From the IMG/VR virus record IMGVR_UViG_3300026488_000013, positions 1 through 64,000 of that record: a stretch of DNA of 64,000 bases; one strand, 5' to 3'. Source of the stretch: a virus. Made by a program: the position numbers and the translations under genes. The notes beneath the pieces were generated by a model. It did no database searches. It saw only the letters and a program-made list of their open reading frames with translations, and was not told the origin of the DNA. The stretch's first letter is position 1. Every line of letters starts with the position of its first letter. Positions 1,061 through 9,348 of the stretch are shown piece by piece.

Positions 1061-3133
1061 TTATTTATATATAAATAGATTACTTCCGGCATCGTAAATA
1101 ACTCTAAACCCATTCGAAAGGACATTTTCTAATTCAGTTAGATTATGATTATAATTCTCGAATAAATCCTTTAATTTGTGTTTTATGAAATACTGTCTAG
1201 GTAGCAATCTTATTTCCGAAACATCACATAATTTTGTAAAATAATAATAATTGGGATGGTTGGTTGTTTTATGAAATTTAAAATTATTTATTGTTAAATA
1301 ATTCTCTGTAAGAAGATTATTAATTCTCCTATCAATATAACTGTAAACAAAACTAATATTACTAATTTTATTTATAAAATGTCGAAACAATCTAGAAAAT
1401 GAACCTGGTATTACATAATCAATTCTATTTACAAACCGTATTATTTCATAAACACCTTCTTTATACTTTTGAAACCTGCCTTTTCCAATTATCAATCCTG
1501 AATAAATATCGTTATATTCATCCTCTAAAGTTAAATAAATTAAACCTGTATGAAAGCCGTGTAAGTGATTTAAATTAAAGAATTCCCTAATTTTATCATT
1601 AGGTTTATCGTAAATTTTTACATTCAATTTTCGTGCATAAATTTTATTATTAATAATTCCAAGCTTAGCTTTTATTATATTAATCCATATTTTTCTTTTT
1701 ATTTCATTATACCATTCGTTTTCAAAAATTTGCAAAAGAAGTATATTTTGCTTTGCTGCGGCACTGGCCTTTTTATAATGTTTCCATTTTAATAGGTTAA
1801 ATTCTTCTTCGTCATAATACTCAATCAACCCAGCACTATGAAAAAATATTCCATGTAATTCAACACCCAATTTTAAATTCGGTAAAAAAATATCTATTTC
1901 ATAATTCGAACCGGGTATTTTCCTAAGTTTCAATATTTCTCCTTTATACCCTATTTCGTTTCGTAATACTCTAACAAAATCGGATTCAAACTTTGAAGAA
2001 ATACATATAGGACAATAAATTCCATTTTCAAAAGTATTTACTGAAACTTCTACAGCACCATGTTTCGTACATATAACACTTATCCTATCATTAATGGACA
2101 ACGGAAAAGTTATTTTATTAAAGTCTAGATAAAATCTAGAATTATATTCATACTTATAAATTTTCTTTACCAGATTTTCTAAATCTCCTTTCGTTTGGTA
2201 TTTTTTCTGTTTGTCACCTGCAATAATTCGCCCACACTTAAAACATCCATTTCCCCTTACAAAATTTGTAATGTAACTTTCAAACTCACCGTGCAAAGGG
2301 CATACAACGGTAATTTTATCTTTATAAGATTTTTTACCATCAAAATACTTTATTTTATATTTTTCTCCATATAACCTTCTCGCAACCTCGACAATTTTTT
2401 CATATGTCCAATTTCTTCTTTCGTAATTCTTCTTTTTAATATCATTTTCTATACACATAACACATGGAATATTTCCCTTTCTTATATAAAGAAGATGATA
2501 CCATTTATATTGCTGTTTACCATGTTTAGGGCATAAAATAGTTACTTTTGCCTCTTTTACAGGTTTATCAAATTCCGTTTCATCTTCTATCAATTTATAT
2601 TTTTTATAATCAAACTTATTTTTGTAAATTTGAATCAATTCTTCCTTCGAAAATTTATTCTTAGATTTTATTTCCTTACGACATTCCGGACAATTTTCAA
2701 ATCTGTAAATTCCATTTTTATATGCTTCAATTTTATCATTTAAAAATAGCGAACCAGCAACAATATTAAAAATTTGATTGTGTTTCTTACAAACACATGT
2801 AATCTTACTCCGCAAATTCGTAAATTCCTCTTTTAATTTTGGAAATTTTAAATGTTTGTCCAATTTGTATTTTTTAACTAATTTTAAAAAATTATTTACT
2901 CCCAGCTCACAGTTTTTACATCTCTTTATTTTTCTATTATTCGTATGCAACAATCTGCGGGCTTCAACATAATATTCAGCACCACACTGTTTACATTTTA
3001 TTCGAATTTTTGTGGTTACTTTAAATTTATCTATTTCTTCAGGTTTCGTTACAATATCGAATTTCGAATTTATTTCTCTATTATCTTGGGAATAAAATTT
3101 GTCCAGAAAAACGAGAAATTTTTCCTTACTCAT
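1061..3133 (-). CDS. Free-standing homing endonuclease (Hef/Vsr-like PD-(D/E)xK, with CxxHG zinc repeats)
   Basis: Repeated CPKHG/CPLHG/CTKHG...CxxC modules; EIDIFLPNLKLGVELHGIFFH nuclease motif; C-terminal NHLHG...YDAG domain. ATG 3133 has a GGAGGG RBS. Confidence 0.75.
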   Translation of the reverse strand: MSKEKFLVFLDKFYSQDNREINSKFDIVTKPEEIDKFKVTTKIRIKCKQCGAEYYVEARRLLHTNNRKIKRCKNCELGVNNFLKLVKKYKLDKHLKFPKLKEEFTNLRSKITCVCKKHNQIFNIVAGSLFLNDKIEAYKNGIYRFENCPECRKEIKSKNKFSKEELIQIYKNKFDYKKYKLIEDETEFDKPVKEAKVTILCPKHGKQQYKWYHLLYIRKGNIPCVMCIENDIKKKNYERRNWTYEKIVEVARRLYGEKYKIKYFDGKKSYKDKITVVCPLHGEFESYITNFVRGNGCFKCGRIIAGDKQKKYQTKGDLENLVKKIYKYEYNSRFYLDFNKITFPLSINDRISVICTKHGAVEVSVNTFENGIYCPICISSKFESDFVRVLRNEIGYKGEILKLRKIPGSNYEIDIFLPNLKLGVELHGIFFHSAGLIEYYDEEEFNLLKWKHYKKASAAAKQNILLLQIFENEWYNEIKRKIWINIIKAKLGIINNKIYARKLNVKIYDKPNDKIREFFNLNHLHGFHTGLIYLTLEDEYNDIYSGLIIGKGRFQKYKEGVYEIIRFVNRIDYVIPGSFSRLFRHFINKISNISFVYSYIDRRINNLLTENYLTINNFKFHKTTNHPNYYYFTKLCDVSEIRLLPRQYFIKHKLKDLFENYNHNLTELENVLSNGFRVIYDAGSNLFIYK

Positions 3134-3213
3134 TGCTACTCCCTCCACAGTCAGTTACCCATCATCAAAATACAAGTCGACAACATTTTTATCGTAACAT
3201 TTTAATACTCATA

Positions 3214-4422
3214 TTAAAAATACCTTTCAAATTCTTTTTCAAAATCTACTTCTTCTCCAGCTGTCATACGATGGTGACTGATTTTCATGAGAAGATTAAG
3301 TCCTTTTACATAGTAGCTACCAGTGGCGTTAAGCCCAGCATGTTTTATATTTGCTTCCTTAGCTAAATCTCCATAACATGTTAAACAAATACCTCTCTCA
3401 GATTTACAATATAATGGTGACCTTAATTTAATAATCTTACCAATCAACTGATTAATATTACCCTCGGTTATTTTAACAAGCTCTTTTTTATTTTCATCAT
3501 AATAATATCTACCTAATATTGTTCCTGCAATTTCTTTAGTAACTTTTAATTCAAAATATTTATCTGTTCTGCAATCTTCTGTATCCCAATCTACATATAC
3601 GTCATTTAATGCGTTCCTTAGTATTATTGCTACATGTCCAGGTTTTGCAGAACCAACAGATTTAAAATATGCGGCGGTTATCGCCTTGTTAGCACCATAA
3701 TACATTTCTTCAGGTTTCATTCCTTCAAACAAACTATGTTTAACGGGCGGTGTTAAATTACCCTCACCATCCACACCATAACCCCAAGCAATAAACAATT
3801 GGATTAAATCATCAGCTTTACCTTTTGTTCCCGATTTAACCATATCGAAGAAAGATAACCCTTTCGATTCTAAATACTTTTGCAATTCCTCGTATATCTC
3901 ATATAGTTTTTTATCTATTTCGACCGGTGACATAGTTTCCATTTGGGACTGCAATTCCTCTTTCATTTTTTCTATATGTTCGGGTAATTCAAATTCTGTT
4001 AATTCAAATGTCGGAGACGCAATTGTTCCAATATCTAAAATATAAGTCTGCAATTTATGTAGAGTTTTAGAATATTCCTCAGGGCCATATTTATCGTATA
4101 TTTCTTTAAGAATATTATTTATTTTTTTCCTGTTTATTTCCTCATTTATAAATGGATAATCTTCCGGGAGACATAGATTAAAAATAATGCGCCCGATTGT
4201 AGTTTTTATTTTTTCATTATTTGTTTTCTTAGGATGTTTATAATATACATATGACCATAATGATAATTTCGATTTTTTTTCTTCTTCATCATCAGGAGTT
4301 TGAACTCTTATAAAGGAATCTAATATTTCTTCAATATCAGTAGATGTTATTAATATATTGGTATTTCTTTTATCTTCTGGGATTGTAAAAATTTTTTGGT
4401 TGAAGGATTGGTTGTTAGACAT
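3214..4422 (-). CDS. Phage RNA polymerase beta-prime subunit, C-terminal fragment
   Basis: TTIGRIIFN..LP, SGTKG, P.KHSLFEG, EDCRT and LRSPLYC...GICLTCYG match RpoC regions E-G; start probably MSNNQ. Confidence 0.85.
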   Translation of the reverse strand: MSNNQSFNQKIFTIPEDKRNTNILITSTDIEEILDSFIRVQTPDDEEEKKSKLSLWSYVYYKHPKKTNNEKIKTTIGRIIFNLCLPEDYPFINEEINRKKINNILKEIYDKYGPEEYSKTLHKLQTYILDIGTIASPTFELTEFELPEHIEKMKEELQSQMETMSPVEIDKKLYEIYEELQKYLESKGLSFFDMVKSGTKGKADDLIQLFIAWGYGVDGEGNLTPPVKHSLFEGMKPEEMYYGANKAITAAYFKSVGSAKPGHVAIILRNALNDVYVDWDTEDCRTDKYFELKVTKEIAGTILGRYYYDENKKELVKITEGNINQLIGKIIKLRSPLYCKSERGICLTCYGDLAKEANIKHAGLNATGSYYVKGLNLLMKISHHRMTAGEEVDFEKEFERYF

Positions 4423-5503: not shown

Positions 5504-5773
5504 TTACTTATCGTTGATTTCCAGATAAACATGTTTCTTATACCGCATTCCTATCTTTTTCAACAACTGTCGGATTGCATTGGCCACAGTTCCTCTTTTT
5601 CCAATTAAAATTCCCGTTTCTGTTTTATCCTTACCGGTAATAGATACTACAACTGTTTTATCCCCTTCGATAACTTTTGTTTCGAAGGTTTCAGGTTTCA
5701 TAGAAAATGCTTCAATAATTGCAGTAATAAGTTTTTTAATTTTTTGCTCTAATTTTAGGTTCTGCATTTGCAT
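5504..5773 (-). CDS. khpA: KH-domain RNA-binding protein, KhpA (UPF0109) family
   Basis: GILIGKRG...NAIRQLL KH GxxG motif; about 90 aa; AGGAGG before ATG 5773. Confidence 0.85.
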   Translation of the reverse strand: MQMQNLKLEQKIKKLITAIIEAFSMKPETFETKVIEGDKTVVVSITGKDKTETGILIGKRGTVANAIRQLLKKIGMRYKKHVYLEINDK

Positions 5774-5888
5774 TACCTCCTTTTCATTTTTCAGTTTCAT
5801 CTAATGAAGAAAATATCATATCTATAGTTAAAAAAATTAGAGAATAATTTAAAAAAAGAGAGAAAATTAATTTTTTAATTATTGTTTA

Positions 5889-6074
5889 TTAATACATTGA
5901 TTCTGGATTTTTTGTTAATTCATATATTCCTAATGCCAAATCCATATCGACGGATGGTTTAAATGATTTATATTTGACCGAAGATAACGCTCCCACTCTC
6001 GTCGATGGAGACAGATATTTCTTTAATTCTTCATTTGCTTTAGGTGTATGAACCGCATAAATATTAATTTGGTC
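5889..6074 (-). CDS. RNAP beta-prime (copy 1) exon 2
   Basis: DQINIYAVHTP...DMDLALGIYELT matches RpoC DQMAVHVP...QDMVLGLYYLT; joins in frame to exon 1 after intron removal. Confidence 0.9.
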   Translation of the reverse strand, partial: DQINIYAVHTPKANEELKKYLSPSTRVGALSSVKYKSFKPSVDMDLALGIYELTKNPESMY

Positions 6075-6267
6075 TTCTGTGTTCACACCGGCACGGGCCA
6101 TACCGGTGCCGCAGCATTACCCGCTGCCCCACGGTTTCCCGCAGGGGCCGGACTATATCTTCTCCGCCTCAGGGAATTAAATTAAGTTGTTATATAAATA
6201 AAAAAAGATATAACCTAAATAATAATTCTAAAATAGTTTTTTAATTTTGAAACTCATTAAATTTATT

Positions 6268-6400
6268 TATTTCTTTTTTTTGCTCAATTTGACTAAATGT
6301 TTCCATCTTTTAGCATTTCTTTTAAATTTATCGGGAGCATTTAATTCTTGTTTTTAATTTACTATCATAAAGATATTCATTAACCTTAATTATTATATTT
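6268..6400 (-). pseudogene. Possible decayed intron-endonuclease C-terminal remnant
   Basis: Frameshifted reading NIIIKVNEYLYDSKLK/QELNAPDKFKRNAKRWKHLVKLSKKKK* in the intron-sense direction within the P8 loop. Confidence 0.3.
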
Positions 6401-6437
6401 ATTCCATAAATCAATTTTAATATTAGAAGAATGGATT

Positions 6438-6447
6438 TATGGAAATA
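6438..6447 (+). promoter_or_regulatory. Phage promoter-like motif TATGGAAATA upstream of csx3
   Basis: Matches the recurrent motif; followed by AAGGAGG RBS and ATG 6477. Confidence 0.6.
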
Positions 6448-6476
6448 AAGAAATAAAAAAATTAAGGAGGTTGGAA

Positions 6477-6764
6477 ATGGTAAAATTTAAAACTACTTCT
6501 CAACAAAATTACACTCTCGTAGAATTTGAAATTGAAGGCGGTGTAATCGCTCCCGAGGAACTAAAACAGTTAACTCCTCCTAAAGTTGACCTGACAAAAC
6601 TAGTCGTATTAAGTGGTAGAGGCCCGATATGGTTGTACCTTTATCTGGCACATCATTATCATACCACTCCTGCACTGGCCAGCTACGACCCTAGAGTTGG
6701 AGGTGCAGTAATCACTCAAACTCACAGCCCTAAATATAAAATAGGAGAAATTGTACCTCTTTAA
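6477..6764 (+). CDS. csx3: Csx3/Crn3-family cyclic oligoadenylate ring nuclease, antisense inside the group I intron
   Basis: VVLSGRGPIWLY..LAH, YDPR.GGAV...H signature of Csx3; about 95 aa; AAGGAGG RBS. Confidence 0.9.
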   Translation: MVKFKTTSQQNYTLVEFEIEGGVIAPEELKQLTPPKVDLTKLVVLSGRGPIWLYLYLAHHYHTTPALASYDPRVGGAVITQTHSPKYKIGEIVPL

Positions 6765-6819
6765 CTTTTACTCTTTTTTTATTTTTCTTCTCACGATGGC
6801 ATAACTTAAATAGTCCTTT

Positions 6820-7160
6820 TATTTTATTTTCTTATTTACACATCATGTCGATAATTGTAATAAGACCATATATTTTATCCTTTAGTGTTTCCACTTAATA
6901 AGAATATAAAAGTATTGTTAAACCATCTGCACTGTAGATTTCAACATCAAAATCACTTTCATTATTTAAATATTCACAAATTCATTAATTACCTTTTATT
7001 TTGAAGAAAACGACTTCCTTAAATATCATTGATACTTTTACATAATTTTTATTCGGTCAAACTGTTTTAAGTAATTTAAACAATTTAATAGTATCTTCAG
7101 ATGCAAATCTCAACATTACATATACATTATCTACTTTATTATGTAAATCATTATTAATCT
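6820..7160 (-). pseudogene. Possible decayed LAGLIDADG-like intron ORF remnant
   Basis: Broken reading frames in the P8 loop, including ...DVEIYSADGLTI. Confidence 0.25.
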
Positions 7161-7431
7161 TCCTCTGAGGCAGAGCCCGGCGTTTCGTCCCGCCGTTATT
7201 GCCCATGACGGGACTACGGCTTAACGCCTAGTCTCTGAACCTTCCCCATAGGAGCTTTTAAAACTCCCTTAGGGGCTTGGCTGCGGGTTGTCCCCTTGAC
7301 TCCCCAACTTTTTACCATACCGGCAGCCATTACGCTACCGCCAGACAGGTATTTCCACCTGTCCTTGGTATCGGGAAGTTTTTGAGGAGTTTCCCGCAGT
7401 TAGCCGGGTTTAACGACGGCGACCAAAGGTT

Positions 7432-9348
7432 ACCGTCGCACTGTTTTTTAACATAACCGTATGCATCTACATATGTTCCGGTAATTAAAGTTGTAATATC
7501 CCATCCAATATTTTTATTTGCTGGTTCAACATTTATTATTTTTTTATAACCGTCCCTATGTAAAACTTTTTTACCTATTATTTCTTCGGACGGTTTCAAC
7601 AATTGTTTATTTTCGTCAATCAAATATTCCTTAGTAGTGGATGATATGAACTCAGTCCCATCTTCCATAATTATTTTTACCGTATTAATATTAGAATGCT
7701 CGTGCCAGAAAACAACTTTATCATAAACAAATTCATTCTTTTCCCTGTCGTATGCTAATATTTCTACTGGTTCTAATAATTCAAGAATTCTTACATGAAC
7801 TCCGTCCACTCTAGTATAGTTTTCTATTTCTCTGTGATTTACATATTTAGGTAAATCTTTAATATGGCATTTAATAAATCTATCATTATTAACTTTAACT
7901 TCTATTAAATCCCAATTGCAGTCTGCGCCGAGTGTTCCAAAGATTATTTGTGGTAATGATGCAACATACACATCTTCCTTATCGATAACTGGTTTCATTC
8001 CTATTGTTGAGTTATCATTTTCAACAGGGTGCCTTAATACTAAGACATATTTTTCATATCCATCGTATACACCATCTATGATTTCTTGCTCTAATTCAAT
8101 TAATTTTTCTTTTATTTGTTGTGGTACAGTCTTAGGATTTTTAACAATGTTATTTGTTAATTCTCTAAATGCACGGTCGGAAAATTTATCGCCTATTTGT
8201 GATTTAACCCATGTATAGATGTCAGAATATTTAGGATTTTTTGTTATATGATGAACAACGAATGGTTCATATAATTTAATTAAAAACATCCAAGGAACTT
8301 TTACTTCATTTGGTTTTAAATTTTTATCATGGGTCAAAACAAGTCTAACTGTATGGTCTAATCGTTTGGACAATTTAGCACTTCTTAATAGTTTTCCCTT
8401 TTGTCCAAAACCCAATATTCCTACTAATTCCAATGCTAATTTTTGCAACACTGGATGTATTTTTGAATAATAACTTTTTATCGGGTCTTCAGATATATCA
8501 GTCTTATTATCAGTAGCGGCACCAGAATCTGGTTCCTCATCTGATAAAAGGTTATTTAAATTCGATAAAACATTTTGAATATCTTCTGAATTGTTGTCAG
8601 ATTTATTATTTGTATTAATATCATTACCGGATTTGATAGTATGCTCTGGTTTGTTTTTATAATATAACTCCCTAATATTTTTATATTTATTTGAAATCCG
8701 TATAATTTCTTGGTATAACTGCGATATAGGGTTTTCTCTTAAAACTTTACCATCTTTAATAAATACATCTCTAAATGCGGCGGGCATTACCAAAAGTTTG
8801 TCTGTGAACAATGTATCTACTAATTCGATAAGAGTTTTTAAAATATCACCATTACCTTTGACAGTATTTACATAATTTTCCATTATCATAAATTCGTTAG
8901 TGTTTTTTTCATCCTTCAAGAAATGATAAAAATCCAGAGGGTATCTAAATTCCTTTATCGATTTTAGATTTTTCTCTTCATGAAACGGTTCTGTATAAAA
9001 TGAACCGTCTTCCATTAAATAAAACGGTTCCGATTGGAGAAATTTTTGATAAACAGATTTACCCAAAATAGAAGAAATTAATCCACCAGATACAAAATCA
9101 AATGTATATGGGTTTAAAACTGGTAAAGGTAGCTCAATATATGCAAATGTCTTTTTACGGCGGGATGAACCAATAGGTCCAAATATCTGCTCAGAATACA
9201 CTCCCTCGGGGTCTAATATTTTTTTACCACCTACTTTAATAACTGTTTTATCGGAGGTTATTTTTTTTAACTTATAACGTTTAATAAATTCGTTGTAATT
9301 TATGGGTTTTAGGTAAATTTGATTATTATTAATTTTTCCCTGTTCCAT
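7432..9348 (-). CDS. RNAP beta-prime (copy 1) exon 1, intein-containing
   Basis: DPEGVYSEQIFGP, LRSAKLSKRLDHTVRLV, LRHP, LGAD...CDG. The ORF track extension to 7330 is read-through into the intron. Confidence 0.9.
7441..7920 (-). mobile_element. 160-aa mini-intein, from Cys1 (CNWDL) to C-terminal Gln (GYVKKQ), +1 Cys
   Basis: Inserted between GAD and CDG; block F-like GWDITT..GTYVD..G; removal restores GADCDGD. Confidence 0.85.

Follow-up and report, generated by a model that had tools for sequence, protein, structure and literature searches.

A phage group I intron that probably ends in A within the catalytic motif of an RNA polymerase beta' gene

Introduction

In the textbook two-step mechanism of group I intron splicing, one pocket of the ribozyme binds a free G and then the terminal G of the intron. 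This terminal nucleotide (omega) is among the very few nearly invariant nucleotides of these introns, and the G at this position is described as universally conserved. The locus analysed here raises the question of where a phage group I intron ends when the base that precedes the frame-restoring exon is an A. We addressed it in a window of 64,000 nucleotides, the whole stretch of DNA that was analysed (positions 1 to 64,000 of the IMG/VR record IMGVR_UViG_3300026488_000013, which is 167 kb long and estimated to be about 60% complete).

Results

A polymerase gene interrupted twice

The window carries on its minus strand an RNA polymerase beta'-like gene (ORF 9348..7330, with a weak match to Pfam Rpb1 domain 2) that is broken twice within nine bases, first by an intein and then by a group I intron. 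Judging from the sequence, it is likely that 7431..6075 is a functional intron and that its exons are joined between A6075 and G6074. The searched collections contained two complete copies of this lineage, the window and the metagenome contig L010, and the relative L011 carries its 5' half. The features of the locus are as follows.

About 7923..7442, minus strand: intein, C...KKQ/CDG (the other copies lie at 1-243 in L010 and at about 2780-3966 in L011)
7432..7438, minus strand: last 7 nt of exon 1, CGACGGU, the P1 5' strand; 5' splice site after U7432
7431..6075, minus strand: probable group I intron, inside the catalytic motif of the phage RNA polymerase beta' gene
7414..7427, minus strand: internal guide, P10 strand UUUGGUC (7427-7421) followed directly by P1 strand GCCGUCG (7420-7414)
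7175..7411, minus strand: ribozyme core with P3, P4-P6, the P7 5' strand and a P7.1/P7.2-type insert; Rfam RF00028
7408-7403 with 7181-7176, minus strand: P3
Within 7175..7411, minus strand: P4-P6 with an extended P5 domain
7235-7229, minus strand: P7 5' strand, with the G-binding G7233
About 7228-7186, minus strand: P7.1/P7.2-type insert
6164..7173, minus strand: P8 region, whose loop carries an antisense Csx3 gene
7173-7165 with 6172-6164, minus strand: P8 stem closing the loop of about 1 kb; covaries with L010
6471-6764, plus strand: Csx3 gene in the P8 loop (PF09620, 1e-28)
6150..6163, minus strand: J8/7 (GAAGAUA) and P7 3' strand UAGUCC (6155-6150); second, weak RF00028 piece
6085..6147, minus strand: P9 with a GAAA loop, and hairpins P9.1 and P9.2, the latter two with A-U pairs exchanged for G-C when the window is compared with L010
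6075..6084, minus strand: unpaired 3' tail GAACACAGAA; A6075 is the probable last intron nucleotide (omega)
5889..6074, minus strand: exon 2, which encodes DQINIYAVH... and ends with the stop codon; P10 is formed by the initial 7 nt, GACCAAA (6074-6068); dN/dS about 0.17 against L010

The last residue of the intein is Gln (VKKQ/C) and not the usual His-Asn end, a feature kept in all three relatives (window, L010 and L011). The L011 intein is about 200 amino acids longer and shows a faint LAGLIDADG match. Both self-splicing elements of the beta' gene would thus end in a non-canonical way, the intein in its last residue and the intron in its last base. The polymerase gene is followed by a gene for a small RNA-binding protein with a KH domain (KhpA/B-type, 5504-5800, minus strand), which occupies the same position in intron-less relatives (L012 2545-2889; L013 4218-4490).

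Pairing of the guide with both exon ends

Read directly on the minus strand, exon 1 ends with tgc gac ggt at 7432, the intron starts with aacc followed by tttggtc (7427-7421) and gccgtcg (7420-7414), and exon 2 starts at 6074 with gaccaaa, encoding DQINIYAVH.... The guide pairs contiguously with both exon ends, as claimed in the preliminary description. P1 has 7 bp (CGACGGU with GCCGUCG), is closed by the U7432-G7420 wobble and was recovered by RNAalifold, and P10 has 7 perfect bp (6074-6068 with 7421-7427) and adjoins P1 on the guide without a gap. The U-G wobble at the 5' splice site is kept in L010 and L011. The guide reads AUUGGUC-GCCGUCG in L010, where P10 has 6 bp and is again contiguous with P1, and UUUGGUU-GCCGUCG in Aeromonas phage AerS_266.

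The join after T7432 and before G6074 yields GADCDGDQINIY, which is identical to the peptide of an uninterrupted metagenomic orthologue. Three orthologues with neither intein nor intron were retrieved by protein search, P0005 (TLGADCDGDQINIYALHTPKAN), P0006 (GADSDGDQINIY) and P0007 (GADNDGDQLNIY); their junction reads GAD[C/S/N]DGDQ[I/L]NIY, and none of the three contains an inserted residue. With the intein removed and splicing at 7432/6074, the predicted product is TLGAD-CDG-DQINIYAVHTPKAN. It matches P0005 exactly through the junction, where extra residues have no room.

The junction codons of the intron-bearing alleles, TGC GAC GGT / GAC CAA AT (window 7432-7440 and 6066-6074), match the guide, and those of an intron-less orthologue (L012 1724-1744) are TGT GAT GGT GAC CAG ATA. 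This difference suggests that synonymous codon choice tracks the P1/P10 pairing.

The ribozyme core and its split P7

The core matched RF00028 at 7411-7175 with 68.1 bits (E 1e-16; cut-off 50 bits), and a second, weak piece at about 6165-6151 aligned with the J8/7-P7 consensus GAAGAUAUAGUC. Rfam at the gathering threshold gave no match over the whole window because the 1-kb P8 insert splits the core; the intron was found in E-value mode and in the genome search. The helices follow each other in the order P3, P4-P6, P7, P3', P8, P7', which is the P3/P7 pseudoknot order of the conserved RF00028 core.

The sequence UAGUCC is present twice on the minus strand, at 7216-7211 and at 6155-6150. The functional P7 3' strand is the distal copy, which follows the consensus J8/7 beyond the 1-kb P8 insert; on this detail the preliminary description may need correcting. 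We rejected the proximal copy in this role: it belongs to the P7.1/P7.2-type insert, violates the order P7, P3', P8, P7' and overlaps the covarying P7.2 stem. The canonical G-binding site described earlier stands with the distal copy, as the pair G7233-C6151 with a bulged A7234, a closing pair G7235-C6150 and the same arrangement in L010.

At a distance of 13 nt from the P7 5' strand, downstream of it, lies the proximal GUAGUCC (region 7211-7235, minus strand), which all three relatives keep. Its UAGUCC could form a local GACUA/UAGUC hairpin, which may be a placeholder protecting the P7 strand during transcription of the 1-kb P8 insert.

An independent copy and the selection acting on the intron and exon 2

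A search with the small ORF spanning the intron tail and exon 2 gave a single relative, P0002 (67% identity), encoded by L010, a 1362-bp metagenome contig from a different JGI sample. L010 has the same intein end (VKKQCDG), core and 5' junction (ggt followed by aaccattggtcgccgtcg) as the window. Its 3' end reads gtgaactcagta followed by gaccaaatc, with the intron tail GAACUCAGUA. The last intron base before GACCAAA (...CAGUA) is again A, though L010 and the window disagree at two of the ten final intron positions. Protein searches found the complete intron only on L010 and its 5' half only on L011, and searches of viral_contigs and metagenome_contigs with four protein and DNA patterns found no further relatives. 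The P8 cargo differs between the two complete copies: the window carries the antisense Csx3 gene and L010 an ORF of 122 amino acids (703-1071) in the sense of the intron without a Pfam match. Neither product can be recognised as a homing endonuclease.

Between the window and L010, synonymous divergence in exon 2 is near saturation (pS 0.65) with a dN/dS of about 0.17, which indicates that the two phages are old relatives and that exon 2 is translated in frame in both lineages. For the intein end, dN/dS was about 0.08. Compensatory changes were found in P1, the P5 extension, P6, P7.2, P8, P9.1 and P9.2 (A-U to G-C in the last two). Comparison of three sequences gave 10 such pairs in the 5' half, and comparison of two gave 3 in the 3' half. 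The P1 pair, between an exon codon and the guide, changes from C-G to U-A in L011. The ribozyme fold thus appears to be under selection. Since L010 is diverged yet ends in A, with compensated helices and an exon 2 under purifying selection, sequencing error and pseudogene decay are unlikely sources of the terminal A.

These data bear on the best-surviving alternative, in which splicing is incomplete and the gene is dead or dying, or its halves are separate polypeptides with exon 2 started at the ATG at 6101. The lack of omega-G and of a visible P9.0 would agree with it, and the frame initiated at this ATG (MARAGVNTEDQ...) is kept in L010. However, the ATG falls within the 11-bp P9.2 stem and lacks a Shine-Dalgarno sequence, compensatory changes keep the ribozyme helices paired, and the dN/dS of exon 2 is low. 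We also know of no precedent for a DxDGD triad split over two chains without an intein. We thus consider this alternative unlikely.

The choice of the 3' splice site

The preliminary description had placed an A at 6075, just before GAC, and had held that only GGT/GAC rebuilds the catalytic motif while the nearest G choices give frameshifts or an NTE insertion. All three points were borne out. The base at 6075 on the minus strand, read directly, is A (acagaa/gacc), so that the intron lacks the omega-G of group I introns, and the homologous base of L010 is also A. We enumerated as alternative intron ends each G in the interval that reaches 45 nt upstream and 1 nt downstream, and all produced a frameshift or a stop except G6084 (which inserts NTE) and G6099 (which inserts ARAGVNTE). 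In L010, ending the intron at the G two bases before the terminal A creates an immediate in-frame UAG, and ending it at the first exon G creates a frameshift. The enumeration and the orthologues without inserted residues agree in leaving GGT/GAC as the only join that rebuilds the motif. GACCAAA occurs 11 times on both strands of the 64 kb, against 8.4 expected, so its presence at the sole frame-restoring position is not attributable to chance.

Comparing ten sequences by eye, we found no convincing P9.0 partner for the dinucleotide that precedes A6075, G6077 or G6084, with only a weak GC/GU match for G6084. Splicing at G6084, the nearest in-frame G, right after the P9.2 stem, would retain nine extra bases and give GADCDG-NTE-DQINIY. 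It has in its favour that a canonical pocket prefers G, that both copies keep the site in frame (NTE in the window, NSV in L010), and that in a large mutational library of an IStron published in 2026 every alternative 3' site used was G-ended and lay within about 10 nt (PMC13521648). Against this, AACACAG cannot form P10, the insertion would fall in the invariant DGD and displace the third catalytic Asp, no insertion is seen there in the three uninterrupted orthologues, and the added residues change non-conservatively from one copy to the other (E vs V). Use of G6084 therefore seems quite improbable to us. A variant with the intein boundary moved to ...CDGN/T or ...CDGN/S was also rejected, as it would give GAD-TED or GAD-SVD, unlike the orthologues.

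Shifting both splice sites appears less probable still. The 5' site would then follow G7434 with omega G6077 (CD-E-D), or G7433 with omega A6076. Group B IStrons splice after G instead of U (PMC4227781), so U need not be the last base of a 5' exon. However, the first version replaces the invariant Gly by E in the window and by V in L010, the second loses the U-G wobble and gives an omega that is A in the window and U in L010, and both conflict with the contiguous register of P1 and P10. Another combination, with the 5' site one base downstream and G6077, was rejected, as it would add a K to the window protein and an I to that of L010 and abolish the U-G wobble. Finally, although the window is a metagenome-derived assembly, we give hardly any credit to the idea that the A at 6075 stems from faulty sequencing or assembly, or from a rare defective variant of a phage that really has G, because an independent contig from another sample has the homologous A while neighbouring bases differ.

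Related introns of cultured jumbo phages

Related introns were present at the identical site in eight cultured jumbo phages (AerS_266, pAEv1810, ACP1, FishSpeaker, D3, VP4B, Miami and HHBS8_1). In the window and in all eight, the insertion lies between the Gly and the third Asp codon, after GGT and before GAY. The homing target of this intron family is the set of DFDG^D codons in multisubunit RNA polymerase beta' genes of phages, and the eight introns at an identical GGT^GAY site fix the DNA boundaries of the element. These phiKZ-like jumbo-phage introns resemble the window in the guide and P1-P3 (84% over 56 nt in AerS_266), and have in common with it the core, the J8/7-P7 consensus, the insert between P7 and P3' and the GAAA-capped P9. 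P7 covaries across the family (GACUA/UAGUC vs GAUCA/UGAUC).

The two groups differ at the 3' end. Omega is G in all eight jumbo phages and A in the window lineage. The terminal G follows a conserved ACAAUG by 4-7 nt, and in five to six of the eight the two bases before it form P9.0 with the last two of J7/9, in several covarying combinations (AA/UU, GC/GC, UA/UA, AG/CU, AC/GU). Neither the window nor L010 shows this arrangement: where the jumbo phages have AACAAUG, their tails read AACACAG plus AA and AACUCAG plus UA, respectively, without P9.0. The window lineage also has different P9.1 and P9.2 hairpins and the extended P5 domain. It looks as if the final part of the tail, with the ancestral terminal G, was lost in the window lineage, which would now rely on P10 alone for placing the 3' splice site.

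AerS_266 (L002, OR496884.1) carries tandem group I introns in its phiKZ-like RNA polymerase gene, at 2590-2939 and about 3007-3378 (RF00028, 43 and 61 bits), both unannotated in the record. As a result, the annotated polymerase CDS stops short and exon 2 appears as a hypothetical protein; the other seven jumbo-phage records have the same annotation gap.

Discussion

A natural intron with a terminal A

The canonical G-C binding pair strongly prefers G in the ribozymes that have been studied, as known from work on Tetrahymena. An engineered Tetrahymena ribozyme (G264A:C311U with G414A), associated with Michel in 1989 and with Been and Perrotta in 1991, reportedly has an altered nucleotide specificity. 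It indicates that the final step is possible with a terminal A in a group I intron, as we propose for the phage intron, but its binding pair was changed to A-U to accept A whereas the pair of the phage intron is an unchanged G-C.

The earlier statement that group I introns almost always end in G holds in general, with a documented exception in the hexacoral ND5-717 introns (PMC8146996, PMC6545197). In the mitochondria of sea anemones and mushroom corals, these introns have a terminal A and their exons are precisely ligated in vivo. In the literature searched, in which journals were partly covered, the hexacoral cases were the only natural ones, and no natural non-G terminal nucleotide was found in a phage or bacterial intron. 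The window combines, as omega-A introns do, a terminal A with a canonical core. Like the phage intron, ND5-717 has a very large gene-carrying P8 insertion and sits in an essential host gene that needs exact ligation. The likeness is one of features. ND5-717 belongs to a eukaryotic organelle and another gene and is strictly vertically inherited, whereas the phage intron occupies a homing site common to mobile relatives. ND5-717 has also been classed as an obligatory, host-factor-dependent intron (PMC3679873). A terminal A is thus rare and not unprecedented, and the phage intron is a further variant beside the hexacoral introns. The preliminary description had already proposed a natural intron with omega-A in a gene for which splicing must be accurate, and this view gained support from L010, the compensatory changes, the selection on exon 2 and the orthologue junctions.

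A possible splicing mechanism

The first step would be ordinary, with an exogenous guanosine bound at G7233-C6151 in P7 attacking after U7432 in the U-G wobble. In the second, the freed exon 1 would attack the A6075-G6074 bond; this bond would have to be used because only that join rebuilds GADCDGD-QINIY, which makes omega an A and not a G. The main determinant of the 3' splice site would most likely be P10, which is unusually long (6-7 bp) and directly adjoins P1 on the guide. The A could be accommodated through weak occupancy of the G pocket compensated by the long P10, with the help of a protein factor, or by splicing of low efficiency that is still sufficient. We infer from the sequence both the use of this bond and the manner in which A would be accommodated. 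The unchanged G-C pocket, the exclusively G-ended alternative sites of the IStron library (PMC13521648), the lack of a detected P9.0, the small number of complete copies (two) and the G-ended introns of all eight cultured-phage relatives are points against the acceptance of A.

For ND5-717, the Johansen group proposed that the terminal A prevents the 3'-site hydrolysis and circularisation that compete with ligation (PMC8146996), an idea that fits the phage intron because both carry a large P8 cargo. More speculatively, we can envisage a reading with three parts, which as a whole we regard as possible and rather doubtful. The lineage might ligate at its terminal A unaided, with an unchanged G-C pocket and without P9.0, by means of a long P10 contiguous with P1. 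Jointly with this, the A might block hydrolysis at the 3' site and circularisation of the intron as long as it carries the 1-kb P8 cargo. As a third, equally tentative part, the A and the C-terminal Gln of the intein may act as two slow steps that throttle the polymerase subunit.

Significance

The natural exceptions found in the literature come from the mitochondria of corals and sea anemones, systems that are difficult to manipulate and thought to be host-factor dependent. A phage omega-A intron would be far easier to study, given its canonical pocket, essential gene, omega-G relatives at the same site and removable P8 insert. It would let the recognition of a non-G 3' splice site be tested, and likewise the terminal A as a suppressor of 3'-site hydrolysis and circularisation. 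Annotation tools that demand a terminal G would misplace the intron boundary and mistranslate the polymerase. If unaided ligation at A is true, this lineage would represent a naturally evolved, protein-independent selection of a non-G 3' splice site.
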